A stretch of 43,585 bases of DNA from assembly GCA_001603685.1 (NCBI GenBank), contig LUZO01000043.1:1-43585 (forward strand). The letters are read 5' to 3'. Under the pieces are notes generated by a model. It saw nothing but the letters and a program-made list of their open reading frames with translations, was not told the origin of the DNA and did no database searches. Positions 8,579 to 33,587 of the stretch are shown here, piece after piece. The DNA is from Bacteroidales bacterium Bact_23. Its GTDB lineage: Bacteria; Bacteroidota; Bacteroidia; Bacteroidales; Lentimicrobiaceae. How positions within the stretch are numbered: the stretch's first letter is position 1; each line of letters starts with the position of its first letter. The position numbers and the translations under genes were made by a program.

Positions 8579-8600
8579 CTAATTGCGGAAAAACATTCCG

Positions 8601-8632
8601 AAGGCTGTCCCGACGCGGGGCAGCCTTTTTTT
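8601..8632 (+). terminator. Intrinsic terminator
   Basis: AAGGCTGTCCCG-ACG-CGGGGCAGCCTT followed by a T-run, between convergent genes. Confidence 0.8.
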
Positions 8633-8665
8633 ATCGGAAAATTATATGGATTGGAGGCCGGGGAT

Positions 8666-11885: not shown

Positions 11886-11904
11886 TTGCCGGGACTGCAA
11901 CAGC

Positions 11905-12426
11905 CTAAAACAATTCACGCGCCTCTTTCTTCAGGTATTCCAGGGCCTTGTACAGAATGGAGCCCTCACTGCTGAGTTCATCCTCAAAAATCAACTGGGC
12001 GAGGTCGGTGGCCGTTGCTTTTTCATTGAGGTTTTCGGCAGCGGTATTTATGGCGGAAATCAGCGATTCGCGGGTATTTTTCACCAGCTCCCAGGCGTTG
12101 GATGAGATGTAGAGCTGCTGCGAAAGATTGTGATCGAACTCCTGGCGTATGTTATCGATAAGCGCTTTCTGCATCTCCCTGGCGCTCATACCCGCCCCGA
12201 TGTTCCGCATAATAAGCTGCGAAGGGGTAATCCGCTCGAGCAGCAGCACCACCCTTTCGTAAGCCTGAAGCCGAACCGGGCTGATCAGTTTCATCCGTTC
12301 TATTTTGCTTTCGAGTTCTCTTCTTTCAGCTTCCGCCTTTGTGAAGTTTTTCAGCAGAAAATATACCGCGAGGCCAACGAGGGCCGCCGGGACGAGAATA
12401 AGAATCAGATCGCGAAGTAATTCCAT
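11905..12426 (-). CDS. Conserved hypothetical protein with N-terminal membrane anchor
   Basis: 173 aa; hydrophobic N-terminal helix followed by a helical domain (LQAYER..LLERI, EFDHNLSQQLY); fills the intergenic space. Confidence 0.7.
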   Translation of the reverse strand: MELLRDLILILVPAALVGLAVYFLLKNFTKAEAERRELESKIERMKLISPVRLQAYERVVLLLERITPSQLIMRNIGAGMSAREMQKALIDNIRQEFDHNLSQQLYISSNAWELVKNTRESLISAINTAAENLNEKATATDLAQLIFEDELSSEGSILYKALEYLKKEARELF

Positions 12427-12565
12427 AAAGCGCAGTTTTTGTCAGGAAAGCGCAAAGGTCGGAATTTTTCGGATTTTTAATTGATTAAATGCTTGTTTGG
12501 CAAGTTTTAATTTCCTTAAATTTGTCCGAAACAGAATATCCGTGCCGTTAACCAACCTAAACGCT

Positions 12566-13768
12566 ATGAATATACTATCAGAAAGAATCCACAGGCTGGC
12601 AGAATCCGAGACGCTGGCCATGACAAGACGAAGCCGTGAGCTTAAGGAGCAGGGCTTTGATGTTATCAATCTGAGCATCGGCCAGCCTGACTTCAACACC
12701 CCGGAGTACATTAAGGCTGCAGCCCGTGAAGCGCTTGATCAGAACTTCACCTTTTACTCACCGGTGAGCGGATATCCCGACCTGAGGAAGGCCATCTGCC
12801 ATAAGCTGAAGCGTGACAACAACCTCGACTACACTCCGGAGCAGATTGTGGTTTCGACCGGTGCCAAACAATCGCTCGCCAACGCCATGCTGGCCCTGGT
12901 AAATCCCGGTGACGAAGTCATCGTTCCCGCCCCCTACTGGGTTTCGTACAAGGAGATTGTGAAGCTGGCTGAAGGCACACCCGTATTTATCCATGCCGGC
13001 GTGGATACCGATTTCAAGATTACTCCCGAACAGCTTGAGCAGGCCATTACCCCGAAATCGAAGGTTTTCATTTTCAGCAGCCCCTGCAACCCCACCGGAT
13101 CGGTATATTCGCGTGAAGAGCTGGCCGGCCTTGCCGCCGTTTTCAGCAAACATCCGGGGATTTTCATTATTTCGGACGAAATTTACGAGCTGATCAACTT
13201 CAAGGGTAAGCACGAGTCGATTGCACAGTTCCCCGAAATAAGGGAGCGGGTTATTCTGGTAAACGGAGTTTCAAAAGGTTTCGCAATGACCGGCTGGAGG
13301 CTCGGATATTGCGCCACCTCACTTGAGATTGCCAAAGCGTGCGATAAAATCCAGGGGCAGGTTACTTCGGGCACCTGCAGCATCACCCAACGGGCTGCCA
13401 TCGCCGCACTGATGACTGATCCCGCCCAATCGGAGGAACTGCAGCATATGATAGAAACCTTCAGGCAAAGGCGCGAACTCTTTGTAAAACTGCTGAACGA
13501 CATTCCCGGCTTCAGAACCAACCTGCCCGACGGCGCGTTCTACTTCTTCCCCGATGTGACCTCCTACTTCGGAAAATCAAACGGAAGCGTAAAAATCAAC
13601 AACGCCACCGATCTGTGCAACTACCTGCTCGACAATGCCCATGTTGCCATCGTATCGGGCGATGCATTCGGCAATCCCGACTGCATCAGGCTTTCATACG
13701 CCACTTCGAACGAAGAACTGATTGAAGCTGCACGGAGAATCAAGGAAAAACTGGCCTTGCTGCATTGA
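12566..13768 (+). CDS. Class I PLP-dependent (aspartate-type) aminotransferase
   Basis: Start ATG 12566; GQPDF, GAKQS, PCNPTG, SDEIY, SKGFAMTGWRLGY (PLP Lys); TAAATTTG -7 box at 12517-12524. Confidence 0.93.
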   Translation: MNILSERIHRLAESETLAMTRRSRELKEQGFDVINLSIGQPDFNTPEYIKAAAREALDQNFTFYSPVSGYPDLRKAICHKLKRDNNLDYTPEQIVVSTGAKQSLANAMLALVNPGDEVIVPAPYWVSYKEIVKLAEGTPVFIHAGVDTDFKITPEQLEQAITPKSKVFIFSSPCNPTGSVYSREELAGLAAVFSKHPGIFIISDEIYELINFKGKHESIAQFPEIRERVILVNGVSKGFAMTGWRLGYCATSLEIAKACDKIQGQVTSGTCSITQRAAIAALMTDPAQSEELQHMIETFRQRRELFVKLLNDIPGFRTNLPDGAFYFFPDVTSYFGKSNGSVKINNATDLCNYLLDNAHVAIVSGDAFGNPDCIRLSYATSNEELIEAARRIKEKLALLH

Positions 13769-13792
13769 TTTCCGGTTGATTCAGCGAACACC

Positions 13793-13835
13793 AAAAACGG
13801 CTTGTTTTAAAAATCGGAAAACAAGCCGTTTTTTT
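13793..13835 (+). terminator. Intrinsic terminator
   Basis: AAAAACGGCTTGTTTT ... AAAACAAGCCGTTTTT stem ending in a T-run. Confidence 0.8.
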
Positions 13836-14046
13836 ATGGGTTACAAAACACTTCCCGCAGACATTAATCACTGATAGCGGTTAAAAATATCAGGGCATCA
13901 GTAATTTAAATAAAAAGCTACATTCTGATGCAAAATCACAATGGTATAACCTATCTTTGCGCCTTAAAAATTTTCAATCGCTATAAAAAAAGGTTTACAA
14001 CAACCGGGGAAATATCCCGGAATTATAATACAACTCAGGCCTTTAG

Positions 14047-15009
14047 ATGGAAAAGAATAATGAAAAACCGGTAAGATTTGCGCTGGTGGGCGCTGCCGGA
14101 TATATTGCGCCCAGGCACATGAAAGCCATTAAGGATACGGGAAACATTCTGGTGGCTGCCCTCGACAAATACGATGGAATCGGAATCATTGACAGCTATT
14201 TCCCGGATGCAGAATTTTTTACTGAGCCCGAACGCTTCGACCGCCATATCGACAAGCTTCGCCGCGGTAAAGTCAACAAGATTGACTATGTGAGCATCTG
14301 TACGCCCAATTACCTGCACGATGCCCATATCAGGCTTGCGCTCCGGAACGATGCACATGCCATTTGCGAGAAACCCATCGTGCTGAATCCCTGGAATGTG
14401 GATGCGCTGTGTAATGTTGAGCGTGAAACCGGTAAAAACATCTATACCATTCTTCAACTCAGGCTTCATCCGGCCATTATGGCGCTGAAAAAGAAGATAG
14501 AAGAGGGGCCCGAAGACAAGATTTACGATGTTGATCTTACCTACATCACCAGCCGCGGCAGATGGTATTACATTTCGTGGAAAGGCGATGTGGAAAAATC
14601 GGGCGGCGTTGCCACCAACATCGGCGTTCACTTTTTCGACATGCTGACCTGGATTTTCGGCGATGTGGACCAGCAGATTGTGCATGCGCTTGAGCCTTCA
14701 AAAGCGGCCGGATTTATGCAACTGAAAAGGGCAAGGGTGCGCTGGTACCTGAGCCTTGACTCGAAAGACCTGCCCAAAGTTGCCATGGATGCCGGCAAGC
14801 GTACCTTCCGTTCGCTTACCATCGAAGGCGATGAATTTGAATTCAGCGATGGTTTTACCGACCTGCATACCGTTTCGTATCAGGATATCCTCTCAGGAGG
14901 CGGTTTCAGGCTGACCGATGCAAGGCCGAGCATCAAAACCGTTTACGAAATCAGAAACTTCAAGCCGGTTGGTTTTAAAGGCGATTACCATCCCTTTGGA
15001 AAACAATAA
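14047..15009 (+). CDS. wbpB: UDP-GlcNAcA 3-dehydrogenase-like (WbpB/WlbA, Gfo/Idh/MocA family)
   Basis: GAAGYIAPRH, PNYLHDAH, CEKP, SWKGD..KSGGVATNIGVHFFD, FSDGFTDLH; TATCTTTG -7 box at 13952-13959. Confidence 0.85.
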   Translation: MEKNNEKPVRFALVGAAGYIAPRHMKAIKDTGNILVAALDKYDGIGIIDSYFPDAEFFTEPERFDRHIDKLRRGKVNKIDYVSICTPNYLHDAHIRLALRNDAHAICEKPIVLNPWNVDALCNVERETGKNIYTILQLRLHPAIMALKKKIEEGPEDKIYDVDLTYITSRGRWYYISWKGDVEKSGGVATNIGVHFFDMLTWIFGDVDQQIVHALEPSKAAGFMQLKRARVRWYLSLDSKDLPKVAMDAGKRTFRSLTIEGDEFEFSDGFTDLHTVSYQDILSGGGFRLTDARPSIKTVYEIRNFKPVGFKGDYHPFGKQ

Positions 15010-15066
15010 AACCGGGCAACTGTTGCCTTTACTTATTTGAAATATTAATTGCTAAAAAAAAGAACA

Positions 15067-16326
15067 ATGAACGAAACTTATAAAATTGGCGTAATCGGAC
15101 TGGGTTATGTAGGACTGCCCCTTGCCGTTGAGTTTGGAAAAATCCATGATGTTGTCGGTTTCGACATCAATCAGGAGCGTATAAAAGAGCTGGAAGCAGG
15201 ACACGACCGTACACTTGAGACTTCTGACGAAGACCTGGCTGCCGCCGTTCATCTGAAATACACCACCAGCCCCGATGCCCTTAAGAACTGCAATTACTAT
15301 ATCGTTACCGTCCCCACCCCTATTGATAAGAACAAAAGACCCGACCTGACTCCGCTGATCAAGGCATCGGAAACCGTTGGGAAAGTGCTGAAAAAGGGCG
15401 ATATCGTTATCTATGAATCAACCGTTTATCCGGGCGCCACTGAGGAAGATTGCGTACCCGTTCTGGAGAAGTTCTCAGGCCTGAAGTACAACAGCGATTT
15501 TTACTGCGGCTATTCCCCCGAACGCATCAATCCGGGCGACAAGGTGCATACGGTTACCAAAATCATGAAGGTTACTTCCGGTTCCACACCCGAAGTTGCC
15601 GGAAAGGTGGATGCCCTGTATAAGACCATCATTAAAGCCGGAACCTACATGGCAAGCAGCATTAAGGTTGCCGAAGCGGCAAAGGTAATCGAGAACTCGC
15701 AGCGCGATATCAACATTGCCTTTGTAAACGAACTGGCCATGATCTTCAACAAAGCGGGTATCGACACCCAGGAGGTGCTTGCCGCAGCCGGCACCAAATG
15801 GAACTTCCTGAAATTCACCCCGGGCCTGGTTGGCGGGCACTGTATCGGCGTTGATCCCTACTACCTTACCCACAAGGCTCAGGAGCTGGGATACAACCCG
15901 GAAATCATCCTTGCAGGCCGCCGCCTGAACGACAATATGGGCTTTTATGTGGCCAACCGCACCATCAAGCTGATGATTAAAAAGGGAATACCCGTAGCCG
16001 ATAGCCGTATTCTGGTTCTGGGAATCACTTTCAAGGAGAACTGCCCCGATATCCGGAACTCCAGGGTTATTGATGTCATCGAAGAGCTGAAGGATTTCTC
16101 ATGCAAAGTGGAGGTTTATGATCCCTGGGCAAGCCCCGAAGAGGTAAAGCACGAATATGGCATCGACCTGATTGAGAAACCCTCCGGCAAATACGACGCC
16201 ATAGTGCTGGCCGTTTCACACAACGAATTTAAGACCATGGATATCGCAAAAATCAAAAATGGAAGCGCCGTTATTTACGATATCAAAGGACTGCTCGACA
16301 AGAACCTGGCGGATGAGCGGCTGTAG
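15067..16326 (+). CDS. UDP-N-acetyl-hexosamine 6-dehydrogenase (TviB/WbpO family)
   Basis: Start ATG 15067; [39 protein letters not shown] (catalytic Cys), [12 protein letters not shown]. Confidence 0.9.
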
Positions 16327-16406
16327 ATAAGTTTTTGCCTGCAATGCAGCGAAGAGAGCAACTCCAAAACCATCACAACTATTTAAATGCGAATACAATG
16401 CATTTA

Positions 16407-16517
16407 AGCAGTGCAAACAGTGCAACAATCGACACCATAATCAAAGTATTCAAAGCCTTGAAAGCAGAAATAAACTTCAATGTAAAACTTGAAGACAATT
16501 TTATAAAACTCGTCTGA
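16407..16517 (+). pseudogene. C-terminal remnant of an XRE-family HTH (antitoxin-like) gene
   Basis: SSANSATIDTIIKVFKALKAEINFNVKLED resembles the post-HTH tail of Bacteroidota XRE proteins; the upstream part of the ORF shows no HTH. Confidence 0.5.
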
Positions 16518-17621: not shown

Positions 17622-18806
17622 TTACATGAATGTTAGCGACACCTCTTTAAGGAACTTCTCTTCGAGCAGGCGGGCTATCCGCTTCACCACCGTACGCCTG
17701 ATTTCAAGTTCCACGGGCAGGCTTGGATCCTGGTGGGCAATATTGATGCGCGTTCCGATAAGAAAGTGGATTTCGTCGCTTTCGAGCAGCATTTTCACAA
17801 TGCGGTCGGCGGGGCCTTTGGTAAGGCGGGTGGTGCTGTTGTACGATTTCAGGATTTCGGTTACCTTACCAAGAGTAAGAATCCCTTCGGTAACCAGATC
17901 AACGCCTTCCATCATCGAGATGGGCGGCAGATCGGGATCGTCGAAGTCGAAAGTATCTTCGATGTTGCGTTTCAACTCCCTGGCAATGATATCGGCGGTA
18001 GTGGCGCCTGAAACAATCTTCTTGCCATCGAACTTTTCAACCACCCGTGCGTACTCGGCATCCTTCTCCTCCTCGAAAGGTGGGCCGGTACAGATCAGCA
18101 TCTTTCTGGGTTCGCGGAAATAGATTACCGCGCAAGAGGTATCGTCCTTGCTCATGTAACCGTCGTTTACATGGGCCATATTCACCACCTTGTGCGCCAG
18201 TTGCTGGGCCGAGATGTTGTATTCGTGGCTCACCAGTTCCTGGACATACTGCAGGGCATTGTCGCGCCCCCATCCGAAAAGGTATTTTCCTCCGCCAAGG
18301 CCCGATTGGGCAACGCCATCGCTGAAAAAGATGATACGGTCTTCCTTTTCGGCAATAAATTCGCAGCTTTTCAGCTCTTTTCCTTCACTTTTCCCCCCTT
18401 CAAGCATCACGCAGGTCCATTCGGGTTCGAAAATCTTCTTTCCACGCATCACAATGGCCTGCGGATTGTCATACTCCAGAATTTTCACCCTCCCGTCCGA
18501 TTCTATATCCACGATGGTAAATGTGGAATAGCTCATCTTTCGCTCGCTGCATACCGGAAGGGTATTCATGATAATTTCGGCAATCCGGTTTGTTTCCTTG
18601 TGTTCGGCTGTAAAACTGAGCGCCATGGTTGCCGTAAGGGTTGCCAGCATATTGGCCTTAACGCCGTGCCCCATCCCGTCGGAGAGCACCGCAATTATCC
18701 TGTTCTCCTCACTGATGCGCCTGAAAAGGAACACGTCGCCGCATATGCGCGACTCGTGATGGAATTTGAATTCCGCATTGACTTCTATATAGAACTTGTT
18801 ATCCAT
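17622..18806 (-). CDS. SpoIIE/PP2C Ser/Thr phosphatase, hydrogenase-associated (HfsC-like)
   Basis: CGD, LSDGMGHG, FSDGV and DDTS metal-binding motifs, plus C-terminal extension (GPP..D, GATT, GVDLVTEGILTL, GTRINIAHQDP). Confidence 0.88.
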   Translation of the reverse strand: MDNKFYIEVNAEFKFHHESRICGDVFLFRRISEENRIIAVLSDGMGHGVKANMLATLTATMALSFTAEHKETNRIAEIIMNTLPVCSERKMSYSTFTIVDIESDGRVKILEYDNPQAIVMRGKKIFEPEWTCVMLEGGKSEGKELKSCEFIAEKEDRIIFFSDGVAQSGLGGGKYLFGWGRDNALQYVQELVSHEYNISAQQLAHKVVNMAHVNDGYMSKDDTSCAVIYFREPRKMLICTGPPFEEEKDAEYARVVEKFDGKKIVSGATTADIIARELKRNIEDTFDFDDPDLPPISMMEGVDLVTEGILTLGKVTEILKSYNSTTRLTKGPADRIVKMLLESDEIHFLIGTRINIAHQDPSLPVELEIRRTVVKRIARLLEEKFLKEVSLTFM

Positions 18807-18815
18807 GCGATGCGG

Positions 18816-20678
18816 TTACTTTTTGGCTGCTTTATGCGATTCGATGATAGAATTGAGCATTTGCTCGGTTTTGGCGGCGCCTTCGCCGAGCAGGAAAGCG
18901 ATTTTCTGAACCAGTTCGAAGTTTTCGTCAATCACTTCGCTTACGCGATGGATAACCTCCTCCTTACGCACTTCGGGCAGGTACATATCGCGCAGCACGG
19001 CGCCGGCAATCTTTCCCTTCTTGATGGCAAATACCGATACATTCAGCAGGCGCTCGCCCAGATGAACATCGCGGTTTACCACACTCTCGTTGGTGGAGAG
19101 TACGCCGGAAAAAAGTTTGTAAAACTGGAAAGGCAGCAGCGTTTTCAGGTCGGCGCCAACCAAACCCGGAATAATTTCGTTGATCTCCTCAGCCTCTTCG
19201 CCCAGAATATTGATAAAACTCTGATTCGACTCGATTACTTTCAGGTTTTCATCCACAATCACCACCGCGCTGGGCAGTTTCTGAAGCATGGTTGAAGTCC
19301 TTTCGAAAGCTTCCTGAACGGCCAGTTGCTCCTGCCTTGCCGACCGCTCCGACTCCATCAGCGCCTCCTGCGTTTTTGCCAGCTTTTCGTTGGTGAGCTT
19401 CAGTGTACGGATGAAATCGTGCTTGCTCCGCAGCGAGTAGGTAATGCACATATCGGTTTTGGTGAGGCCTTTGGCGACATTCTCGGCAAATTCGCGGCAC
19501 GATTCGTAGCCGCAGGCGCCGCAGCCCAGTTTATCCTCATTGCTCGACTTGCCGATGATCTTCAGAATCTCCTCTACCTTTTCCTCAGACGGTTTGGGAA
19601 GCCGCTGGTCGTTTTCGGCAAACGAAGCCCTGAAATCGGTGAGTCGGGCATGATTTGCACACGCCTTTTCCCAGGTATCCAGATTGAAATTCTTCAGTTT
19701 TTTATTGGCATAATCGGTAACCAGGGTTTTGCGCACATATTTCTTTCCGCCTTTCGATGTGCCGGGCCCCATAAGGCAGCCTTCACAGTAGAAGAGGTTG
19801 AAATGTTTGCGGATAAAGTCGATGGAGGTCTCAAATTCACGGATCGATTCCAGGATATTGACCTTACCCTCCGAAGTAATGACACTTCCCTGCATCAGGT
19901 CTTCATCCAGCCGTGCAGCCTGGAGGATTCCGTTGCTGACGGCATAGAGCGACCCCTTGTAACCCAGGGGCGGATCGAAATCGGAGTACTCAACCGTACT
20001 CTCCTTGATGTTAAATTCCGTAAAAAGCTGGCGCAACTCAACAAAAGTAAGCACGGCATCCACCCGGGCATCGCCTTCGTAGCGCAGCGCTTCCTCCTTT
20101 GCACCTATGCAGGGGCCAATGTAAACCACTTTCACCTCCTTGCCATAGAGCTGGCGCGAAATCTGCGCCGAGGCAATCATGGGGCTAACGATGGGTGCAA
20201 GGTTTCCAATCAGGTCGGGATGGAATTTTTCGATAAGCGCCACAATGGGCGGACAGTTTGTGGTGATGTAATACTTGCCGAGGAAATTGGTGAACAGCTC
20301 GCGGTATTCTGCCGCAACCAGGTCAACGCCAAACGAAACCTCATTTACATGAGAGAAACCCAGTTCGCGGATCATCCGCACAAATTTCCGGTAATCGGTA
20401 ATATCGTCGAACTCGCCTGAAATGCTGGGCGCGACGATGGCCACCACTTTCTGATCCGATGCCAGCAACTGCTTAACATCCTCACAGGAATCGCGGTAGG
20501 TAATGGCCTGTGGAGCGCACACCAGCAAGCAGCTTCCGCAGCCAATACAACGATCGTTGTTGACCACCGGGGCTTCCTGGTTCACCTTCACCTGAATGGC
20601 ATTAACCGGACAGGCGCGGACACAGGCATAGCAAATCTTGCATTTGCTTTTATCTATGCTTATAAGCGGAGCTTTCAT
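18816..20678 (-). CDS. Sensory-type (group C, HydS/HfsB-like) [FeFe]-hydrogenase domain protein with FeS and PAS domains
   Basis: 2x[4Fe-4S] N-terminus (CKICYACVRACP, CIGCGSC..CA); TTNCPP / GPCIGAKEE / YCEGCLMGPG; CGACGYESC..MC; PAS-like region; tail QKIAFLLGE. Confidence 0.85.
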   Translation of the reverse strand: MKAPLISIDKSKCKICYACVRACPVNAIQVKVNQEAPVVNNDRCIGCGSCLLVCAPQAITYRDSCEDVKQLLASDQKVVAIVAPSISGEFDDITDYRKFVRMIRELGFSHVNEVSFGVDLVAAEYRELFTNFLGKYYITTNCPPIVALIEKFHPDLIGNLAPIVSPMIASAQISRQLYGKEVKVVYIGPCIGAKEEALRYEGDARVDAVLTFVELRQLFTEFNIKESTVEYSDFDPPLGYKGSLYAVSNGILQAARLDEDLMQGSVITSEGKVNILESIREFETSIDFIRKHFNLFYCEGCLMGPGTSKGGKKYVRKTLVTDYANKKLKNFNLDTWEKACANHARLTDFRASFAENDQRLPKPSEEKVEEILKIIGKSSNEDKLGCGACGYESCREFAENVAKGLTKTDMCITYSLRSKHDFIRTLKLTNEKLAKTQEALMESERSARQEQLAVQEAFERTSTMLQKLPSAVVIVDENLKVIESNQSFINILGEEAEEINEIIPGLVGADLKTLLPFQFYKLFSGVLSTNESVVNRDVHLGERLLNVSVFAIKKGKIAGAVLRDMYLPEVRKEEVIHRVSEVIDENFELVQKIAFLLGEGAAKTEQMLNSIIESHKAAKK

Positions 20679-20705: not shown

Positions 20706-20996
20706 TCACACTCCCGATGAGGTCTTGCCAAAAATGCCATCGAGAATCATGATCACTTTATCTTCATTCAGCCCGGTATATTCCTTACCGTCGATATTGA
20801 TGAGCGGCCCCTTGTCGCAACTGCTGAAACAGTGAGCTCCGTGAAAATAAACCAGGTGCCTCAAGTTGCGTTCGTTCAGGTATTGCTCTATCACCTTCAC
20901 AAGTCTTTTGTTCCCTCTCGAAAAACAGGAACTGCCAAGACAGATCTGAATATCAATTCTGTTGTCCACAAATGTCGGTATTAAATCATTAACCAC
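20706..20996 (-). CDS. Thioredoxin-like [2Fe-2S] ferredoxin (HfsA-like)
   Basis: ICLGSSCFSRG ... HCFSSCDKGP; GTG start is uncertain. Confidence 0.82.
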   Translation of the reverse strand: MVNDLIPTFVDNRIDIQICLGSSCFSRGNKRLVKVIEQYLNERNLRHLVYFHGAHCFSSCDKGPLINIDGKEYTGLNEDKVIMILDGIFGKTSSGV

Positions 20997-21193: not shown

Positions 21194-21228
21194 CTGTTAA
21201 AAAATTAACAATGTTAAAAAAATAACAG
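21194..21228. promoter_or_regulatory. Tandem Rex-like operators
   Basis: CTGTTAAAAAATTAACAA (21194-21211) and ATGTTAAAAAAATAACAG (21211-21228) fit TTGTKAA-N4-TTMACAA; rex is encoded in the rightward operon. Confidence 0.7.
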
Positions 21229-21316: not shown

Positions 21317-21787
21317 ATGGCCGATAAGATTGATGAAATCATTGATAAGCACATCAGTGTACAGCGCGACAGTCTGTTACCCATGCTTCAGGATATCCAG
21401 AAGGAGATGGGATATCTGTCGGAGGAGTCGATAAACCGGATAGCCCGTGCGCTTGATATGCCCATCAGCAAGGTGTATGGGGTTGCCACCTTTTACGACC
21501 AGTTTCGTTTCGAAGCCAGGGGGCGCTTCCATATTCAGATTTGCCACGGCACCGCCTGCCACATCAACAACTCCGCCCGCATCATTCACGAAGCGGAACG
21601 GCTACTGAAGATCAGGCAGGGGCAGACCACACGCGACGGGATGTTCAGCATAGAGGTGGTTAACTGCATGGGTGCCTGCGGGTTATCGCCCGTGATGGCG
21701 GTAAACGACACCTACTACCACGGCATCGATCCCAACGACCTGAAAGATATTTTTGATGAATGCAAAGAAAAAATAAACCGGATATGA
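21317..21787 (+). CDS. hydC: HydC/NuoE-like [2Fe-2S] subunit of a trimeric hydrogenase
   Basis: VYGVATFYDQF, CHGTACH, CMGACGLSP. Confidence 0.9.
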   Translation: MADKIDEIIDKHISVQRDSLLPMLQDIQKEMGYLSEESINRIARALDMPISKVYGVATFYDQFRFEARGRFHIQICHGTACHINNSARIIHEAERLLKIRQGQTTRDGMFSIEVVNCMGACGLSPVMAVNDTYYHGIDPNDLKDIFDECKEKINRI

Positions 21788-23756: not shown

Positions 23757-25481
23757 ATGAGCTTCCCGATAGAAGTAAACAATAAAACGATTATTGCCCG
23801 GCGCGGTGAAACCATTCTTGAGGCACTTGAGCGCAACGGCATAAAGGTACCCACGCTTTGCCACATGCCGGGACTGAATCCCTCGGGCTCGTGCCGGATG
23901 TGTGTGGTGGAAGTGGAAGGCAAGCCCAACCTTATTACCGCCTGCTCCTACCCCGTTGAAGAGTGGATGAAGATAAAGACGCACTCGCCGCGGGTGGTAA
24001 ATGCCCGGAAAACCAATGTTGAGCTGCTGCTGAGCAACCACCCTGACGATTGCCTCTATTGCGAAAGGAACGGCAACTGCGAGCTTCAGAACTTTGCCGA
24101 GCAACTGAATGTGCGAGAGCGCCGTTTTGTCGGCAAAAAGAACAAATACAAATCCGACCCTTCGGGCTCGAGCATCATCCGCGACCCCGCCAAATGCATT
24201 TTGTGCGGCCGCTGCGTCAGAACCTGCGAAGAGGTGATAGGCGCCGCCACGCTGGGATTTATCGGCAGAGGAAACAAAACCATCATCGGGCCGGCATTCA
24301 ACAAACAGATGAACCTTTCGAGCTGCATAACCTGCGGACAGTGCATTATGGCATGCCCCACAGGCGCCCTGCACGAAAAGCGCCACTCTTCCGACCTGCA
24401 GAATGCACTTCACAACAAGGATATTCATGTGGTTATACAGTACTCCCCCACCATCTCAATCAGCCTGGCCGAAGAGTTTGGACTTAAGGCGGGAAAGGAC
24501 ATCAACGGTCTTTTGAATGCCGCACTCCGCAAAACAGGCTTCGACAAGGTTTTCGATACCGCTTTCGGCGTTGACCTCTACATTATGGAGCTGGCTGCAG
24601 AATTTGAGCACCGTCTGAAGAACAACCTTCAACTGCCTATGTTCAACAGCGACTGTCCCGCCTGGATAAAATACATGGAGCAGTGGCAGCCCGATCTGAT
24701 TCCGAATGTATCCACCTGCAAATCGCCGCAGCAGATGCTGGGCGCCATCATTGCCGGCTATTACAGCAAAACCTACCACATCAACATTGATAACCTCTAC
24801 ACCGTTTCGGCCATGCCGTGCACGGCCAAGAAATTCGAAGCACAGCGCGAACAGATGACCATTAAGGGCATCAGCGATGTGGACGCCGTACTCACCACCC
24901 GCGAAATTGCTCAGTTTATCCGCCTGAATGGCATTGATATCCATCAGGGCGATCACGAGCTACCCGACATTCCGTTCCATGTCCACAGTTCGGCAGGCAA
25001 ACTGGTAAGCGTGAGCGGCGGGGTTACCGAAGCGTTAATCCGCACCCTGCATTACAAGCTAACCGGAAAGGAGTTTGACCACAAACGCATCAGCGAACTG
25101 CGGGTTAACAAGGATTGCAAGGAAGTAAAGCTGAAAATCGGCGATTACAAGCTTGGTTTTGCTGCCGTAAGTACCGTTAATCAGGCGGCACGGCTTATTG
25201 AAGAGATCAAGAACGGCAGAAACGACCTCCATTTCATCGAGGTTATGGCTTGTCCGGGCGGATGCGTAAACGGCGGCGGCCAGCCCATTGTTGACGATCC
25301 TTCAGCCGTAAAAGCCAGAATTAAGGCAATTTACGACCAGGATGACAAGGAACCGATCAGAATGGCTCACAAGAACCCGGCTATCATCGAGCTTTACAGG
25401 GAATTTCTGGGCGAGCCGCTGAGCGAACAAAGCATGAAACTTCTGCACACCTCATACAAAAAGAGGGAAGTGTCGTTGTAA
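23757..25481 (+). CDS. hydA: [FeFe]-hydrogenase large subunit, group A3 architecture with a divergent active site
   Basis: 2Fe-2S, His-ligated 4Fe-4S (HPDDCLYC..C) and 2x[4Fe-4S]; H-cluster motifs FNSDCPAW, MPCTAKKFE, EVMACPGGCVNGGGQP; C-terminal LLHTSY. Confidence 0.9.
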   Translation: MSFPIEVNNKTIIARRGETILEALERNGIKVPTLCHMPGLNPSGSCRMCVVEVEGKPNLITACSYPVEEWMKIKTHSPRVVNARKTNVELLLSNHPDDCLYCERNGNCELQNFAEQLNVRERRFVGKKNKYKSDPSGSSIIRDPAKCILCGRCVRTCEEVIGAATLGFIGRGNKTIIGPAFNKQMNLSSCITCGQCIMACPTGALHEKRHSSDLQNALHNKDIHVVIQYSPTISISLAEEFGLKAGKDINGLLNAALRKTGFDKVFDTAFGVDLYIMELAAEFEHRLKNNLQLPMFNSDCPAWIKYMEQWQPDLIPNVSTCKSPQQMLGAIIAGYYSKTYHINIDNLYTVSAMPCTAKKFEAQREQMTIKGISDVDAVLTTREIAQFIRLNGIDIHQGDHELPDIPFHVHSSAGKLVSVSGGVTEALIRTLHYKLTGKEFDHKRISELRVNKDCKEVKLKIGDYKLGFAAVSTVNQAARLIEEIKNGRNDLHFIEVMACPGGCVNGGGQPIVDDPSAVKARIKAIYDQDDKEPIRMAHKNPAIIELYREFLGEPLSEQSMKLLHTSYKKREVSL

Positions 25482-25499: not shown

Positions 25500-27518
25500 A
25501 TGAGTATCGAAGAAATAACCCCGAAACGCCAGCTGGTTACCACCATCAGAGAACGGTGCCGGGTATGTTATACCTGCGTGCGCGAGTGTCCTGCCAAGGC
25601 CATCAAAATTATAAACGGCCAGGCGGAAGTTATTGCCGAACGATGCATTGGATGCGGGAACTGTGTAAAGGTCTGCAGTCAGAATGCCAAGGTTTTCCGC
25701 AAAGAGATTGATAAGGTTAAAGAGCTGATTGGCAGTGGCAATAAAGTGGCCGCCATTGTCGCTCCCAGTTTTCCGGCCGAGTTTGCCGAGATTAAGAATC
25801 ATCGCCTGCTGGTTTCCATAATCCGGGAGCTTGGATTCCACTATGTAGCCGAGGTTTCATTCGGCGCCGACCTGGTTGCCGGCGAATACAAAAAGATCCT
25901 TCAGTCGAAGCAGTTGCCGCCTGCCATTTCATCCGATTGTCCGGCAATCGTAAAATACATCGAGTATTATCATCCCAATCTGGTGGATTCGCTGGCGACC
26001 ATCGTTTCGCCTATGGTGGCCATGACCCGGGTAATGCGCAAAAAGTACGGCAGCAACCTTAAGGTTGTATTTATCGGCCCCTGCATTGCGAAAAAGGATG
26101 AATCGCCCGAAGTGGATGCTGCCCTCACCTACCGGGAACTCAGGGAGATGATCAGTCAGCATGGTCTGAAACCGGCGGATGTAATCCCAACCGACTTCGA
26201 TCCGCCAATGGGCGGCAGGGGCGCCATTTTTCCGGTGAGCAGGGGGCTGCTGAATACCGTGGGCGTGAAGGAGGATATTTTTGAGCGGAATGTCATTGTT
26301 GCCGAAGGAAGAAGCGACTTTCAGGAAGCCATCCGTGAATTTGAGAACGGCCAGATCTCGCAGGAGCATCTGGAACTGTTGTGCTGCGAAGGCTGCATCA
26401 TGGGGCCGGGAATGTCGCCCTATCCGTTTCTTTCATCACTCAGCCGGAGATTCAGAAAACGCGCCAGCGTTAGCGACTATGTCATCCACAAACTGGAGGA
26501 GATGGATATGGAGCAATGGGAGAAAGATTATGAACTCTACTCCACCATCGACCTGTACTGCGAATTTACCAGACGCGATATGCGCCTCGACCGGCCGGTA
26601 AGCAAGGAGATTGAAGAGGTACTGAATAAAATGGGAAAATTCGGCCCTCAGGATCACCTCGATTGCGGCGCCTGCGGCTATGAATCGTGCGAGGAGCACG
26701 CCATCGCCATCATCCGCGGCCTGGCCGAGCATGAAATGTGCCTCCCCTACACCATCGAAAAACTGCACAACTACATCGACGAGCTGAACATATCGAACGA
26801 GAAACTGGCCAGCGCCCAGGAGGCATTGCGGCAATCGGAGAAACTGGCCGGAATGGGACAGCTCTCGGCCGGAATTGCCCACGAACTGAATAACCCACTG
26901 GGGATCATCACTATGTACAGCAACATCCTGAAGGATGAAGCCGCACCCGACGACCCGATCAGAAACGACCTTGAGCTGATAGCCGAGCAGGCGGAACGCT
27001 GCAAGAAAATCGTGGGCGGACTGCTGAACTTTGCACGCAAAAACCAGGTAAATTATGAGGAAAACGACATAAACCGCCTGATGGAACACTCGATCAGCTC
27101 GGTGGTACTACCCGAAAATATTAAGATATCACTCGAATCCAACATTATGAATCCTGTAATCAGGCTCGATTTCGACCAGATGACACAGGTATTCACCAAC
27201 CTGCTGAAAAACGCCGGCGAAGCAATGCCCGAAGAGGGAGGCACCATCAGCATAATCATGAGTGATACCGACGACAATGTGACCATAAACATAGCCGATA
27301 CCGGATCGGGAATTGAGGAGGAGAACCACAACAAGCTGTTTACGCCGTTTTTCACCACCAAACCCATTGGTAAAGGCACCGGACTGGGGCTGCCTATTAT
27401 ATATGGTATAGTAAAGATGCACAAAGGCAAAATCTCATTCAACTCGAATGCTGACAAATCCAGAGGACCAACCGGCACCACCTTCACCATTGTACTTCCC
27501 AGATATGGGATGAGTTAA
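25500..27518 (+). CDS. [FeFe]-hydrogenase-like sensor fused to a histidine kinase (group C, kinase-linked)
   Basis: 2x[4Fe-4S]; SSDCPA / GPCIAKKDE / ELLCCEGCIMGPG; CGACGYESC..MC; AHELNNPL H-box, NLLKNA, DTGSGI, FTPFFTTK, GTGLGL; no TM segment. Confidence 0.9.
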   Translation: MSIEEITPKRQLVTTIRERCRVCYTCVRECPAKAIKIINGQAEVIAERCIGCGNCVKVCSQNAKVFRKEIDKVKELIGSGNKVAAIVAPSFPAEFAEIKNHRLLVSIIRELGFHYVAEVSFGADLVAGEYKKILQSKQLPPAISSDCPAIVKYIEYYHPNLVDSLATIVSPMVAMTRVMRKKYGSNLKVVFIGPCIAKKDESPEVDAALTYRELREMISQHGLKPADVIPTDFDPPMGGRGAIFPVSRGLLNTVGVKEDIFERNVIVAEGRSDFQEAIREFENGQISQEHLELLCCEGCIMGPGMSPYPFLSSLSRRFRKRASVSDYVIHKLEEMDMEQWEKDYELYSTIDLYCEFTRRDMRLDRPVSKEIEEVLNKMGKFGPQDHLDCGACGYESCEEHAIAIIRGLAEHEMCLPYTIEKLHNYIDELNISNEKLASAQEALRQSEKLAGMGQLSAGIAHELNNPLGIITMYSNILKDEAAPDDPIRNDLELIAEQAERCKKIVGGLLNFARKNQVNYEENDINRLMEHSISSVVLPENIKISLESNIMNPVIRLDFDQMTQVFTNLLKNAGEAMPEEGGTISIIMSDTDDNVTINIADTGSGIEEENHNKLFTPFFTTKPIGKGTGLGLPIIYGIVKMHKGKISFNSNADKSRGPTGTTFTIVLPRYGMS

Positions 27519-27562: not shown

Positions 27563-27958
27563 ATGACCAAAATGAAAAAGACTGTTTTAATTGTTGACGA
27601 TGACATGGATTATCTGTTCCAGATGAAGCTGAAAGTGGAACAGTTTGGTTTCGAAACGATTACGGCTGATGGCCAGAAAGAGGCAGAATCCATTATCGAA
27701 ACCGTCAGGCCCGACCTTGCCATTCTCGACCTGATGATGGAGAGCGAAGACAGCGGTTTTATCCTGGCCTACAAAATCAAGCGTAAATATCCGGATGTGC
27801 CCATCATTATTGCAACAGCGGTAACTGCCGAAACCGGAATGAATTTCGATATCAAGTCGGATGAAAACAAACAGTGGATCAAGGCCGACCTTTTTCTCGA
27901 CAAGGGAATCAGGGCCGATCAACTGCAGAGAGAAATCAATAAATTGTTAAAAATCTGA
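27563..27958 (+). CDS. Single-domain response regulator (receiver only)
   Basis: VDDD, ILDLMME (phospho-Asp), ATA, LDK; no output domain; alternative start at 27572. Confidence 0.88.
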   Translation: MTKMKKTVLIVDDDMDYLFQMKLKVEQFGFETITADGQKEAESIIETVRPDLAILDLMMESEDSGFILAYKIKRKYPDVPIIIATAVTAETGMNFDIKSDENKQWIKADLFLDKGIRADQLQREINKLLKI

Positions 27959-27961
27959 GAA

Positions 27962-29098
27962 ATGGCGTCGTATAAAGTGCTGGTAGTTGACGATGAACCG
28001 GGAATCCGCATGGGTACCAGGCGAATTCTTCAAAACTTCAAGGTTGACTATCCGTTTATGGATGAATTTATAGAGTACATTGTTCTGGAGGCGGCCACAG
28101 GCGAAGAGGCCATCGAGATTATCGACAGCGAAATGCCCGATATCATCCTCCTCGACAATAAACTGCCCGGCATTCAGGGCATTGAGGTGCTGGAGTATGT
28201 CAAGAAAAAGCTTTACGACATTGTGGTTGTGATGATTACCTCATACGCATCGCTTGAACTTGCCGTAAAAGCCACCCGCGACGGAGCTTACGACTTCATC
28301 CCGAAACCGTTTACCCCGCAGGAGCTGAGAGGCTCGCTCGAAAACATCACCAAACAGCTCTTCCTGAAGCGGATGACTCAAAAGCTGAATAAGGAAGGCA
28401 AACTTATCCGCTTCCAGTTCCTTTCGGTACTGTCGCACGAACTGAAAGCCCCGCTGAATGCCATTGAAGGCTACCTTAACATCATGAAGGAGAAGCAGTT
28501 TGGCGATAATGTGGACAGCTACAAAGATATGATCGACCGCTCGCTAGAAAGGATAAGCGGCATGCGCGGGCTGATTATGGACCTGCTCGACCTCACGAAA
28601 ATCGAATCGGGGAAACCCACCCAGAACCTGCAGAAAGTTGACATCACCAAAATTGCCGGAACCTCCATTGATACCATGCGCCCCTACGCCATTCAGAAAG
28701 ATGTGGATGTCTATCTGAACACCAAAGAGAGCGTTATTATGGAGGCTGATGCAAAAGAGATTGAAATTATTTTCAACAATCTGATATCCAATGCGATAAA
28801 ATACAACAAACAGGGCGGGCGCGTGGATGTTTTCATCCATCGGGACGATAAAAACATCAGGCTCCAGGTGTCAGATTCAGGCATCGGCATGTCGGAAGAA
28901 GAGCAGAGTTCGCTTTTCCAGGATTTCGTACGCATTAAAAATCCAAAAACCAAAAACATCACCGGTTCCGGACTGGGGCTTTCAATCATCAAAAAGATTA
29001 CAGAGATGTATCATGGTGATATTGAAGTGAATAGCGTACCTGATCAGGGAACAACCTTTACTATAATCCTCCCGCTGGAACGAACTGCAATAAACTGA
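27962..29098 (+). CDS. Hybrid receiver-histidine kinase (REC-HisKA-HATPase)
   Basis: VDDEP, LLDNKLP, IPKPF; SHELKAPL, NLISNAIKY, DSGIGM, GSGLGL. Confidence 0.9.
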   Translation: MASYKVLVVDDEPGIRMGTRRILQNFKVDYPFMDEFIEYIVLEAATGEEAIEIIDSEMPDIILLDNKLPGIQGIEVLEYVKKKLYDIVVVMITSYASLELAVKATRDGAYDFIPKPFTPQELRGSLENITKQLFLKRMTQKLNKEGKLIRFQFLSVLSHELKAPLNAIEGYLNIMKEKQFGDNVDSYKDMIDRSLERISGMRGLIMDLLDLTKIESGKPTQNLQKVDITKIAGTSIDTMRPYAIQKDVDVYLNTKESVIMEADAKEIEIIFNNLISNAIKYNKQGGRVDVFIHRDDKNIRLQVSDSGIGMSEEEQSSLFQDFVRIKNPKTKNITGSGLGLSIIKKITEMYHGDIEVNSVPDQGTTFTIILPLERTAIN

Positions 29099-29109: not shown

Positions 29110-29730
29110 ATGAAAAAACTACCCGATAAAACAGTAGAAAGGCTGAGCCAGTACCGCCGGGCGCTGATGAACTATTACTCCGGCGGCAAGCACCACATCT
29201 TTTCGCACGAAATAGCCAACCTGCTTCATATCACGGCTGTACAGGTACGGCGCGACATCATGCTGATCGGTTACACCGGTACCCTGAGGCAGGGCTACGA
29301 TGTAAAGGAGCTGATCGACATCATCGGCAAGATCATCGACACCCGCGAAGGACAAAAGGTTGCCGTAATCGGCATTGGTAACCTCGGGAGGGCCATTATC
29401 GGTTACTTTAGCGGAAAACGCACAAAACTTTCGATAGTAGCCGCTTTCGACAGCAATCCCGAAAAGGTTGACCGCATCTATGCGGGAGTCCACTGCTACC
29501 ACAGCAGCCAGATGGCGGAAGTTATCAGGCGCGAAGATATCTCCATCGCGGTAATCTCGGTGCCCGGCGATGCGGCCGGACAGGTGGCCGAAGAGCTGAT
29601 TATGGCCGGAATCAGGGGAATTCTGAACTTCTCGCCCAAGGCACTGAATGTTCCTGCGCATGTCTATCTGCAGGAGTACGATATGATTACCAGTCTGGAA
29701 AAAATTGCCTATTTCGTGAAAAAACCGTAA
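29110..29730 (+). CDS. rex: Redox-sensing transcriptional repressor Rex
   Basis: TVERLSQY, QVRRD..G.TG..GYDV, GIGNLGRA, GIRGILNFSP. Confidence 0.92.
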   Translation: MKKLPDKTVERLSQYRRALMNYYSGGKHHIFSHEIANLLHITAVQVRRDIMLIGYTGTLRQGYDVKELIDIIGKIIDTREGQKVAVIGIGNLGRAIIGYFSGKRTKLSIVAAFDSNPEKVDRIYAGVHCYHSSQMAEVIRREDISIAVISVPGDAAGQVAEELIMAGIRGILNFSPKALNVPAHVYLQEYDMITSLEKIAYFVKKP

Positions 29731-31597: not shown

Positions 31598-33034
31598 ATG
31601 ATATTTACACCTGAAAAATGCCGCATTCCGGATCAGAGGATGAAGCCTTTTATCGATCCTGATGAATTGTGGGACATCCTGAATGAAACTAAACCGGATA
31701 AACAGGCAGTCCGCGATGTGATTGCCAAATCGCTTGAGAAAAACAGGCTGACCCTCAGGGAGACAGCCATGCTGATCAATGCCAACGACCCTGAACTGAT
31801 TGAAGAGATTAAGGAAGGTGCCCGCGAGCTGAAGAAGCGCGTTTATGGTAACCGTATTGTGTTGTTTGCTCCGCTTTACATCGGAAATAAATGCACCAAC
31901 AACTGCAAATACTGCGGATTCAGGGCATCGAACAAGGAGGCCATCCGCAAAACCCTGACCGACCAGGAGATTGTGCGCGAGGTTGAGGCGCTGGAAGATA
32001 ACGGCCAGAAGCGCCTTATCCTCGTTTACGGCGAACATCCCGAATACAATGCCGAATACATTGCCGATAATGTAAGGCTGGTGTACGGAATCAAGAAAGG
32101 TCCGGGCGAAATCCGCAGGGTAAACATCAATGCCGCTCCTCTCGATATCGACGGATTCCGTATCGTGAAAGAGGCCGGCATCGGCACCTACCAGATTTTC
32201 CAGGAAACCTACCACCCCGAGATTTACAAAACCTACCATCTGGGCGGCAAGAAAAGGGATTTCAACTACAGGCTCACTTCGCTCGACCGTGCTCAGGAAG
32301 CCGGCCTCGACGATGTGGGAATCGGCGCTTTGTTCGGACTGTACGACTGGCGCTACGAGGTAATGGGCCTCATCCGCCACACCAACCATCTGGAAGCCTG
32401 CTATCATGTCGGTCCGCACACCATCTCCTTCCCGCGCATTCAGAACGCCTCAATGCTTGATCTTGGGAAAGATTATACGGTTAACGACGAAGATTTTGCA
32501 CGGCTGGTTGCCATTCTCAGGCTTGCAGTCCCCTACACCGGTATGATTCTTACGGCAAGGGAGAATCCCAAACTCAGGCACGAAGTAATTCAGTTCGGCG
32601 TATCGCAGATCGACGGCGGCACCAAACTGGAGCTGGGCGCCTATTCCGACTCGCTGAATCAGGAGCAGGACCTCAACCGCGAGCAGTTCCAGATCAACGA
32701 CGACCGCTCACTCAATGAGGTAATCGATGAGCTCCTCGAAAACGATTACCTCCCATCCTTCTGCACCGCATGTTACCGCCGTGGCAGAACCGGTGAGCAC
32801 TTCATGGAGTTTTCGGTTCCCGGATTCATCAAGCGCTTCTGCTCACCCAATGCCATGCTTACCCTGGCCGAATACCTCGAAGACTACGCTCCCGCCGATA
32901 CAAAAGCTGCCGGATGGAAGGTAATCGAAAAGAACCTGAACGACCTGCGAGAGCAAACCGATGAGAAAAATGCAGCCGAACTGAAAAGCAGACTCGACAG
33001 GGTGAAGGCAGGCGAACGCGACATCTATTTCTGA
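31598..33034 (+). CDS. hydG: [FeFe]-hydrogenase H-cluster radical SAM maturase HydG
   Basis: FAPLYIGNKCTNNCKYC, FQETYH, GPHTISFPR, C-terminal SFCTACYR..RTG..FC auxiliary-cluster motif. Confidence 0.95.
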   Translation: MIFTPEKCRIPDQRMKPFIDPDELWDILNETKPDKQAVRDVIAKSLEKNRLTLRETAMLINANDPELIEEIKEGARELKKRVYGNRIVLFAPLYIGNKCTNNCKYCGFRASNKEAIRKTLTDQEIVREVEALEDNGQKRLILVYGEHPEYNAEYIADNVRLVYGIKKGPGEIRRVNINAAPLDIDGFRIVKEAGIGTYQIFQETYHPEIYKTYHLGGKKRDFNYRLTSLDRAQEAGLDDVGIGALFGLYDWRYEVMGLIRHTNHLEACYHVGPHTISFPRIQNASMLDLGKDYTVNDEDFARLVAILRLAVPYTGMILTARENPKLRHEVIQFGVSQIDGGTKLELGAYSDSLNQEQDLNREQFQINDDRSLNEVIDELLENDYLPSFCTACYRRGRTGEHFMEFSVPGFIKRFCSPNAMLTLAEYLEDYAPADTKAAGWKVIEKNLNDLREQTDEKNAAELKSRLDRVKAGERDIYF

Positions 33035-33059: not shown

Positions 33060-33317
33060 ATGAAAGAAACCAGAATCATCGGACTACTCATCAGAGATAG
33101 GATTAAAGAAGCAGGTAAACTGCAGCTCGCCCTGAACAAATACGCTCACCTGATAAAATCAAGGCTCGGTTTTCATGAGCTGAGCGAAGACACATGCAGC
33201 AGAATGGGTTTCATCATTCTTCAGCTTACCGGTAAAAGTGATGAATGGCAAGCCTTTGAAACCGAGATTTCAGAAATTGGCGGAGTAGAAATGCAGAAAA
33301 TGTCGTTTGAACTTTAA
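33060..33317 (+). CDS. Small ACT-like hydrogenase-associated protein (TM1266-like), copy 1
   Basis: IIGLLIRDR..LQ.AL..Y..IKSRLGFHE..G.IIL pattern; directly after hydG. Confidence 0.7.
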   Translation: MKETRIIGLLIRDRIKEAGKLQLALNKYAHLIKSRLGFHELSEDTCSRMGFIILQLTGKSDEWQAFETEISEIGGVEMQKMSFEL

Positions 33318-33329
33318 TACGAAAACAAA

Positions 33330-33587
33330 ATGAAAAGGCGTATTCTTGGCATCAATGTGGGCAACCGTGACGAAGTTGCCGAAAAAGTTCAAAAGGTGCT
33401 GACTACTTTTGGCTGCTCCATTCGCACCCGTCTCGGACTTCATGAAACGGATGACGACCACAGCGAACCGGGCGGATTGATTCTGCTTGAGCTGATCGGC
33501 GATGAAAACGAATGGAACAAGCTCGAAAAAGAGCTTTCAGCCATTGAGCACTGCGAAACAAAAAGAATGGATTTCAGCGGAAAGTGA
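33330..33587 (+). CDS. Small ACT-like hydrogenase-associated protein (TM1266-like), copy 2
   Basis: ILGINVGNR..VQKVLTTFGCSIRTRLGLHE..GLILLEL; paralog of the previous ORF. Confidence 0.75.
   Translation: MKRRILGINVGNRDEVAEKVQKVLTTFGCSIRTRLGLHETDDDHSEPGGLILLELIGDENEWNKLEKELSAIEHCETKRMDFSGK

Follow-up and report, generated by a model that had tools for sequence, protein, structure and literature searches.

A soluble [FeFe]-hydrogenase-histidine kinase fusion and the remodelled HydABC beside it in a Bacteroidales genome

Background

What does a histidine kinase sense when a hydrogenase domain sits on the same chain, and what is the bifurcating-type hydrogenase encoded directly in front of it for? 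Both questions are raised by one gene of Bacteroidales bacterium Bact_23 (assembly GCA_001603685.1, contig LUZO01000043.1, positions 1 to 43,585 of the forward strand; the window, below, is this whole stretch of 43,585 nucleotides). A first-pass annotation had read the gene behind hydA as a soluble [FeFe]-hydrogenase-histidine kinase fusion gated directly by H2 and perhaps docked on HydABC. It placed the kinase correctly but overlooked two features of the neighbourhood, namely the remodelling of the upstream hydrogenase HydABC and the Rex-like boxes of the operon. The answer towards which we lean is an H2-gated phosphorelay that starts from the kinase, with the remodelled HydABC as a slow redox partner. 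Papers are cited by their PMC identifiers, for the portions of their text that were available.

The kinase gene

The open reading frame runs from an ATG to a TAA (25500-27518, forward strand), encodes 672 residues and begins 18 bp after the end of hydA (25481), exactly as first annotated. The order of domains proposed then (two [4Fe-4S] clusters, an H-cluster domain, an extra iron-sulphur (FeS) module, a coiled coil and a HisKA/HATPase core) is the one that we recover. Pfam finds a Fer4 dicluster domain at residues 17-63, Fe_hyd_lg_C at 82-303 (E 4e-48), an FeS domain at 387-416, HisKA at 453-515 and HATPase_c at 558-668. The sensor motifs SSDCP, GPCIAKKDE and ELLCCEGC start at residues 144, 193 and 292; in the kinase core, HELNNPL lies at 461, the N box at 567, G1 at 600, F at 614 and G2 at 626, which makes the set of H, N, G1, F and G2 boxes of a HisKA-type kinase complete. 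An AlphaFold model from a 57-row alignment (predicted local distance difference test 81.6, predicted template modelling score 0.65) connects the FeS module to the H box by long helices (415-451), and a Foldseek search matched it to solved [FeFe]-hydrogenases at E ~1e-20. The highest Kyte-Doolittle mean over 19 residues is only 1.35; hence the protein has no transmembrane helix and should be soluble, as had been supposed. One can notice that the P3 motif, C296-x2-C299, is shorter by one residue than that of group A, and that D146 occupies the position of C299 of CpI (mapped by local alignment). A contig from a related strain covers the whole locus, with no indel listed within the kinase gene. 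We concluded from this that the fusion did not arise through faulty assembly. Among named relatives, Lentimicrobium proteins come nearest (75-83%). Three RNA runs of one study contain short contigs from the locus, at a depth that is low and even, and only one of the runs covers the kinase gene; such contigs cannot show transcription, and DNA may be present.

Table 1. Features of the hydrogenase-kinase cluster, in window coordinates
Feature	Position	Strand	Basis
Predicted group C3-type sensory [FeFe]-hydrogenase-histidine kinase fusion (BfuT-like), 672 aa	25500..27518	+	domain search, motifs, model, HydDB rows
2x[4Fe-4S] ferredoxin domain (C20-C59)	25557..25676	+	Pfam; 8 Cys invariant in 122/122
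H-domain: 4Fe-4S ligands C147, C195, C296, C299; A88-P89-S90, P171, K198, E201, F244	25743..26408	+	
C-terminal FeS module C389-x2-C392-x4-C397-x16-C414, root of signalling helix	26658..26747	+	Pfam, alignment
Coiled-coil linker; C414-to-H461 spacing 47 or 40 residues	26748..26879	+	AlphaFold model, alignment
HisKA (H461, HELNN) and HATPase_c with N, G1, F, G2 boxes	26856..27503	+	
Remodelled HydC (BfuC), thioredoxin-like [2Fe-2S]	21317..21787	+	Pfam, site conservation
Remodelled HydB (BfuB): FMN/NADH and FeS motifs largely kept; clade-typical G248S in NADEGDPG loop	21760..23730	+	
Remodelled HydA (BfuA): all FeS ligands kept, pocket substituted	23757..25481	+	alignment to CpI
Single-domain receiver protein (D56)	27563..27958	+	Pfam; in 119/121 loci
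REC-HisKA-HATPase hybrid kinase (D65, H159)	27962..29098	+	Pfam; in 118/121 loci
Rex, NADH/NAD+-sensing repressor	29110..29730	+	above NCBIfam cut-off; 64/121 loci
HydG H-cluster maturase	31598..33034	+	above cut-off
Two TM1266-like/CPF_0552 proteins, after HydG	33060-33587		
Two tandem palindromes TGTTA-N6-TAACA, candidate Rex operators between divergent operons	21195-21210, 21212-21227	.	
Small thioredoxin-like [2Fe-2S] protein	20706..20996	-	Pfam
Divergently transcribed second HydS-like protein (620 aa; 41% to the sensor part of the kinase)	18816..20678	-	
SpoIIE-type Ser/Thr phosphatase	17622..18806	-	Pfam

Conservation of the kinase

We searched 401 genomes of the order at E <= 1e-130 and 401 genomes of the phylum at 1e-100, and found matches to the kinase in 153 and 24 of them, respectively. 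From these we fetched 121 loci: L001, 20 of the 22 full-length phylum-level matches outside the source genome, and 100 of the 152 order-level matches, picked by flank length and family spread. With the window this gives an alignment of 122 kinases (103 closer and 19 distant sequences). Trees were built with FastTree and, in smaller runs, with IQ-TREE.

The sixteen metal-binding cysteines, among them the H-cluster ligands C147, C195, C296 and C299, and the phospho-accepting H461 are invariant in 122/122. Around the diiron site, K198 (the equivalent of CpI K358), E201 and A88 are each found in 121 sequences, and P89, P171 and F/Y244 in all of them; C295 is kept in 90/122 and is hence not invariant. 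The proton relay of group A is not kept: the column of E279 is variable and that of S319 is mostly Ala (again by local alignment, over the 122 sequences). The distance from the last FeS cysteine, C414, to H461 is 47 residues in 101 kinases and 40 in the other 21. The difference is one heptad, the step that one would expect of a coiled coil transmitting a signal in register. Genes for HydG, HydF and HydE are all present in the genome above cut-offs, hydF and hydE away from the locus. An invariant H-cluster pocket, a linker that changes by a whole heptad and the presence of all three maturases fit a soluble kinase gated by H2. It is likely, as far as the alignment can tell, that the kinase carries an H-cluster and reports H2 to a phosphorelay.

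The gene order is conserved too. Among the 121 loci, hydA lies directly upstream of the kinase in 113, hydCBA upstream in 114, and a divergent HydS-like gene is found in 56 (downstream receiver, hybrid kinase and rex genes: Table 1). No DNA-binding response regulator occurs among the conserved neighbours of these loci.

The SDCP motif common to the kinase and HydA had been noted in the first-pass annotation. The motif is indeed in both (NSDCP in HydA, SSDCP in the kinase), and each Asp aligns with Asp299 of the CpI variant C299D (PDB 6GLZ). It makes no special link between the two proteins, however: Asp stands at this position in 100/103 closer kinases but in only 10/118 adjacent HydAs, and the 19 distant kinases all have Pro, Ala or Ser. 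Co-conservation of SDCP between kinase and HydA is thus ruled out, and Asp299 of the window HydA reads as one among many substitutions in a relaxed active site. In CpI, C299D retains 30-90% of the activity, and E279A/Q leaves less than 1% (PMC6226526).

The remodelled HydABC

The genes upstream of the kinase form the set of a group A3 bifurcating hydrogenase: HydC, HydB with its FMN (flavin mononucleotide) and NADH motifs and B-cluster cysteines, and HydA, which scores above the group A cut-off, with its F-clusters. Compared with CpI, whose numbering the window HydA shares from 218 to the 430s, this HydA carries A230S, S232T, T275Y, E279L, C299D, F417V, G418S, M424T, A427L and A431L. It retains M353, K358, E361, M497 and all cysteines and FeS ligands. 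Neither the proton path C299-E279-S319-E282-R286 nor the diiron pocket is intact (D299, L279, S230, V417, S418). In the window HydB, 209 of the 233 sites conserved in canonical copies are retained, together with most flavin and NADH motifs.

Such remodelled copies of HydA neighbour the kinase in 65 of the 101 Bacteroidales-group loci examined. L070 (hydA and hydB fragmented), L091 (hydA not on the contig) and L035 and L042 (no upstream hydA) were left out of the HydA counts. Among the 64 HydAs of loci with rex, the ligands C300, C355, C499 and C503 and all F-cluster ligands are present in 64/64, and E279 is kept in 11, C299 in 33, K358 in 35, M353 in 33, F417 in 16 and A230 in 8. The 37 HydAs of loci without rex keep E279 and C299 in 35, K358 and F417 in 36; together with the 17 distant ones they are almost wholly canonical. 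Taken over the 65 remodelled HydAs, K358 is missing in 30 and E279 in 55, and every FeS ligand is kept in all. HydB is marked as well: G248S occurs in 62/65 remodelled copies, against Gly in 52/52 canonical ones. In nearly all remodelled HydAs, bulky residues (L, V, I, F) replace A427 and A431. A427, A431 and T275 may line a gas channel in CpI, which A427L, A431L and T275Y would fill; a search for papers on such residues found none.

The change is confined to the hydrogenase when the signalling proteins of the same loci are taken as an internal control. Mean pairwise identity (loci with versus without rex) is 42 versus 67% for the H-domain of HydA, 52 versus 70% for HydB and 44 versus 67% for HydC; it is 57 versus 57% for the kinase sensor, 61 versus 63% for the kinase core and 62 versus 62% for the receiver. 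The fraction of canonically conserved sites retained is 0.76 for HydA (non-Cys), 0.79 for HydB and 0.75 for HydC, against 0.97-0.98 for the three signalling proteins. The ratio of non-synonymous to synonymous rates (dN/dS) of remodelled HydA is 0.02-0.12 in 5 of 10 pairs, dS being saturated in the other 5. By this measure the remodelled HydA is under purifying selection.

Does the remodelled HydABC then still work as a hydrogenase on its own account? The kinase could be a stand-alone H2 sensor, and HydABC either a bifurcating hydrogenase that works, though slowly, or a dispensable paralogue on which selection has relaxed, co-regulated with the kinase and forming no complex with it. The four pocket residues kept by the window HydA and its score above the group A cut-off would suit this explanation. 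So would the fact that C299D is the tolerated substitution and the commonest replacement in the clade (10/65), as would the lack of new conserved sites in remodelled HydAs and their kinases and the occurrence of the kinase beside canonical HydABC too. However, K358 and E279 are gone from the numbers of remodelled HydAs given above, yet all FeS ligands are kept and dN/dS does not exceed 0.12. A pocket that is lost while its FeS ligands are held under selection is hard to fit to H2 catalysis or to decay alone; this strains the explanation, and we consider it unlikely.

A second HydA elsewhere in the genome

The genome contains eight genes with an H-domain. Two of them, on contig C166, encode conventional group A HydAs (TSCCPGW and TSCSPGW), both with the TIMEE glutamates. 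An orthologue of the conventional C166 HydA (73-89%) is present in 62 of 63 genomes with a rex-type locus, and in the single one that lacks it, which is 79% complete, the kinase neighbours a canonical HydA. Just one group A match is found in each of 24 among the 38 non-rex genomes; a C166 orthologue occurs in two only, and both of these have a remodelled HydA. Counted over 19 pocket sites, at least 2 changes are seen in 64/64 HydAs of genomes with a C166a-type orthologue and at most 1 in 36/36 without. The 19 sites were taken only in part from CpI papers, the threshold of 2 changes was chosen after the data had been seen, and L001 and the 19 distant loci lie outside this table. Given the substituted proton-transfer residues and the full set of FeS cysteines, we consider it likely that the remodelled HydA is the sensor's redox partner rather than the cell's main producer of H2.

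Several observations weigh against such a partnership. The same type of kinase stands beside a fully canonical HydABC in 53 loci and without upstream hydABC in 2 (L035, L042), and in at least 3 loci phosphate-ABC genes lie between hydA and the kinase gene. At a threshold of 96%, no newly conserved position was found in remodelled HydA or in the neighbouring kinases; hence the sequences do not point to a new interface between the two. The window HydA may even be a slow but real hydrogenase, since K358, M353, E361 and M497 are kept and C299D alone is tolerated in CpI. The counts that relate remodelling to the paralogue are not independent, the genomes being kin: the kinase tree gives 4 supported independent pairs, all in the same direction, which is not significant (p 0.125). 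Finally, a tree of HydB and the HydA N-terminus puts the remodelled copies in one clade (Shimodaira-Hasegawa support 99-100), and the kinases beside remodelled HydAB are rejected as one clade (approximately unbiased test, p 0.0009, 35 rows). This disagreement means that the modules have recombined or that the HydAB clade is partly convergence.

In 12 loci (L064, L069, L075, L076, L080, L086, L099, L112, L120, L121, L133, L134), an extra hydA/hydC lies past the SpoIIE gene and faces it; as it lies just beyond that gene, conventional and remodelled hydrogenase operons make one supercluster in those genomes. On C166 itself, positions 4286-16472 (L003) hold two conventional hydABC sets and, between them, a module that consists of two kinase-like ATPases, one PHP-like protein and a HydS-like protein of 458 aa lacking PAS (names by eye). 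In the distant relatives L035-L048, a further hydCBA, with TSCSP, comes after the relay genes; in L035 and L042 it is the sole hydABC near the kinase.

A proposed mechanism

The relay that we favour can be followed from one end to the other. HydE, HydF and HydG would load the diiron site of the kinase H-domain. On binding H2, this site would stay reduced for long and turn over little, as reported for the sensory enzymes TmHydS and TamHydS, because the group A relay is absent and Asp146 provides no more than a local proton acceptor. Electrons would spread to the FeS clusters of the kinase, one of which, the C389-C414 cluster, sits where the coiled coil begins; the helix would rotate or slide and so switch H461 between kinase and phosphatase; we take HELNN to carry both the kinase and the phosphatase motifs. 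The phosphate would then pass to D56 of the single-domain receiver and/or to D65 of the hybrid kinase, and H159 of the latter would relay the signal to a target beyond the cluster, as the cluster itself encodes no DNA-binding response regulator. The remodelled HydABC would act as a slow or non-catalytic redox module, which likely connects the NAD(H) and ferredoxin pools to the sensor and resets it, and the two conventional HydAs on C166 would carry the bulk of H2 turnover. The Rex encoded in the operon likely represses the kinase operon and both C166 hydrogenase operons through tandem boxes, and would add an NADH input.

The part played by HydABC may be stated more boldly. A large branch of the Bacteroidales would have converted a whole bifurcating hydrogenase into a component of signalling: the remodelled HydABC would make no H2 but, with its FeS wire kept, dock on the kinase and feed it electrons from NADH and ferredoxin, and the kinase H-cluster would weigh this reducing power against ambient H2 and set the phosphorylation of its histidine accordingly. 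In many genomes the diiron pocket of the kinase is the sole complete one among the three H-domains of the cluster. We regard this version as doubtful; if it were true, many genes annotated as group A3 H2 producers would be pseudo-hydrogenases.

The third of these H-domains belongs to the divergent HydS-like protein. In its 57 copies the equivalent of K358 is absent in 57/57 and the H-cluster cysteines are often lost, C298 being kept in 38/57. Encoded ahead of a SpoIIE phosphatase, this protein is likely a pseudo-sensor, to judge from its residues. The comparison bears on another explanation, in which the kinase senses the redox state of ferredoxin or NADH through its FeS clusters or through HydABC, its H-domain being a scaffold with possibly only a [4Fe-4S]H cluster. 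The kinase has three accessory FeS clusters, one of them at the root of the signalling helix, the NADH-coupled FeS wire is kept in the neighbouring HydABC and Rex is encoded in the same operon, all of which would agree with it. Yet the kinase keeps the residues around the diiron subsite (APS, P171, K198, E201) almost without exception, whereas they drift in both neighbouring H-domain proteins, and we hold a sensor of redox state alone to be quite improbable.

Relation to known systems

HydDB (2016) describes group C3 as 'Fusion with histidine kinase', with Caldithrix abyssi WP_006928132.1 (670 aa) and Ignavibacterium album WP_014559402.1 (659 aa) (PMC5037454), and a later paper separates the kinase-domain type of C3 from the PAS type (PMC11406978). 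The window kinase resembles these two rows in length and domain order and, by eye, in its N-terminal ferredoxin, GPC-x-AKK, C-x2-C P3 and CGxCG motifs; the Ignavibacterium row strongly resembles the kinase of L030, also by eye, and in Caldithrix a group A3 HydA lies two accessions from the C3 kinase. The differences are a P1 residue that is Asp in the window, Thr in the Caldithrix row and Ala in the Ignavibacterium row, and a PAS domain that HydDB lists for C3; the window kinase has no Pfam PAS match, its FeS module running directly into the coiled coil and HisKA. The HydA beside the window kinase is, in addition, remodelled. Zheng and Huang (2024) name BfuT the group C3 hydrogenase with a histidine-kinase domain that is encoded downstream of bfuA in sub-type V BfuABC clusters (PMC11406978). 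The window protein has the four H-cluster cysteines and the equivalents of K358 and E361, the N-terminal 2x[4Fe-4S] and C-terminal Cx2Cx4Cx16C clusters, no group A proton-transfer residues, a histidine kinase on the same chain and a gene downstream of bfuA. We therefore assign it, by motifs compared with the reference sequences by eye, to the probable kinase-fused group C3 (BfuT of sub-type V). The label C1 was rejected, because the matching HydDB records are filed under C3.

The same authors name three Bacteroidota in which another bfuT lies upstream of bfuC, and they call the meaning of this unclear; the window locus has the same layout. They treat BfuABC as bifurcating hydrogenases, and the available part of their paper does not mention losses in the pocket or proton path of Bacteroidota, Rex boxes or receiver genes (PMC11406978). 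Since the fusion is catalogued and common, the copy in the window is no discovery: the kinase is a new member of a catalogued kind, and the cluster with its remodelled HydABC is a variant and the less expected part. In the literature searched, which mostly did not extend to subscription papers, we found neither a biochemical study of the fused kinase nor a description of degenerate or remodelled HydA in Bacteroidales.

The two putative sensory [FeFe]-hydrogenases that have been characterised are TmHydS (group C, M2f) and TamHydS (group D, M2e), which like the kinase have an N-terminal 2x[4Fe-4S] domain and no group A proton path and are encoded with group A enzymes (PMC8163306, PMC10407848). 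The C-terminal Cx2Cx4Cx16C cluster is common to the kinase and M2e/M2f enzymes (PMC8163306), and the kinase has Gly at M353, like TmHydS, and Leu at M497, like TamHydS (PMC8163306, PMC10407848). These two proteins end in a PAS domain or have no output domain, whereas the window protein has the kinase on the same chain and Asp at the C299 position. Their signalling route is stated to be an open question (PMC8163306); a single soluble chain with a kinase read-out would offer a handle on how [FeFe] sensors signal.

From the chemistry of these enzymes one could also suppose that the kinase H-cluster senses an inhibitor gas (O2, CO or NO) and that the relay guards oxygen-labile hydrogenases. O2 rapidly converts TamHydS to a stable state (PMC8163306), and a carboxylate at position 299 alters which H-cluster states accumulate (PMC6226526). 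Against this, group C/D sensors have a raised tolerance to CO (PMC8163306), the gene context points to H2 metabolism controlled by a redox repressor, and the references used revealed no oxidative-stress regulator in any of the 121 loci. We judge a gas sensor very improbable.

For a HydABC that serves another protein there is a precedent in the Type 2 Bfu enzyme NiFe-HydABCSL of Acetomicrobium mobile, where a HydA without H-cluster is an electron wire for another subunit (PMC9304861); by contrast, the window HydA retains its H-domain and four cysteines, and its proposed partner is the kinase. C299D and E279A/Q of CpI are engineered single variants (PMC6226526), and the window HydA is a natural combination of D299 with a non-protonatable residue at 279, next to a kinase with Asp at 299. 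Such natural variants at C299 and E279 are a ready set for H-cluster chemistry. If the remodelled HydABC is non-catalytic, genome inventories overcount the H2 producers among anaerobic Bacteroidales, and a known energy-conserving machine has found a new use in signalling.

Rex-like boxes

The operon has both a rex gene and an upstream palindromic candidate operator (Table 1), and the palindromes agree with the clostridial Rex consensus TTGTTAANNNNTTAACAA (PMC8457756). A perfect site of this kind, by a search pattern defined after the window palindromes had been seen, lies upstream of hydC in 47/62 rex loci, 3/37 non-rex loci and 0/17 distant ones, the expectation from shuffling being ~0.24 for the 62 rex loci. 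The genome has 20 such sites, and tandem pairs precede both C166 hydrogenase operons. The Firmicutes Rex consensus TTGTGAA-N4-TTCACAA gave no more than chance-level matches in the window. L125 and L126 have 3-4 Rex-like boxes upstream of hydC with no rex nearby, and a rearranged receiver order.

Other genes of the cluster and of the window

The order of the operon is hydC-hydB-hydA-kinase-receiver-REC/kinase-rex-ribF-MBL-hydG; the operon on the opposite strand comprises the small [2Fe-2S] protein, the second HydS-like protein and the SpoIIE phosphatase. In the receiver domain of the hybrid kinase (27962-29098), D111 is conserved beside remodelled HydABC and present in 2% of the copies beside canonical HydABC. 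The genes inserted between hydA and the kinase in L057, L058 and L060 (same gap in L090) are four phosphate ABC transporter-like genes, named by eye. On another contig of the genome, C104 (28-13061, L002; names partly by eye), a HydC/HydB pair is found with a 1281-aa Nfn/NuoG-like subunit and a 481-aa group B-like hydrogenase, and with a second HydS-SpoIIE pair and a Rex-like gene. Elsewhere in the window, a pyruvate:ferredoxin oxidoreductase is divergent from a dihydroorotate dehydrogenase-like gene (3582-8578), about 10 kb from the hydrogenase cluster, and the reverse strand at 41044-43107 encodes a 687-aa fusion of a trypsin-like protease with a DNA/RNA non-specific endonuclease.

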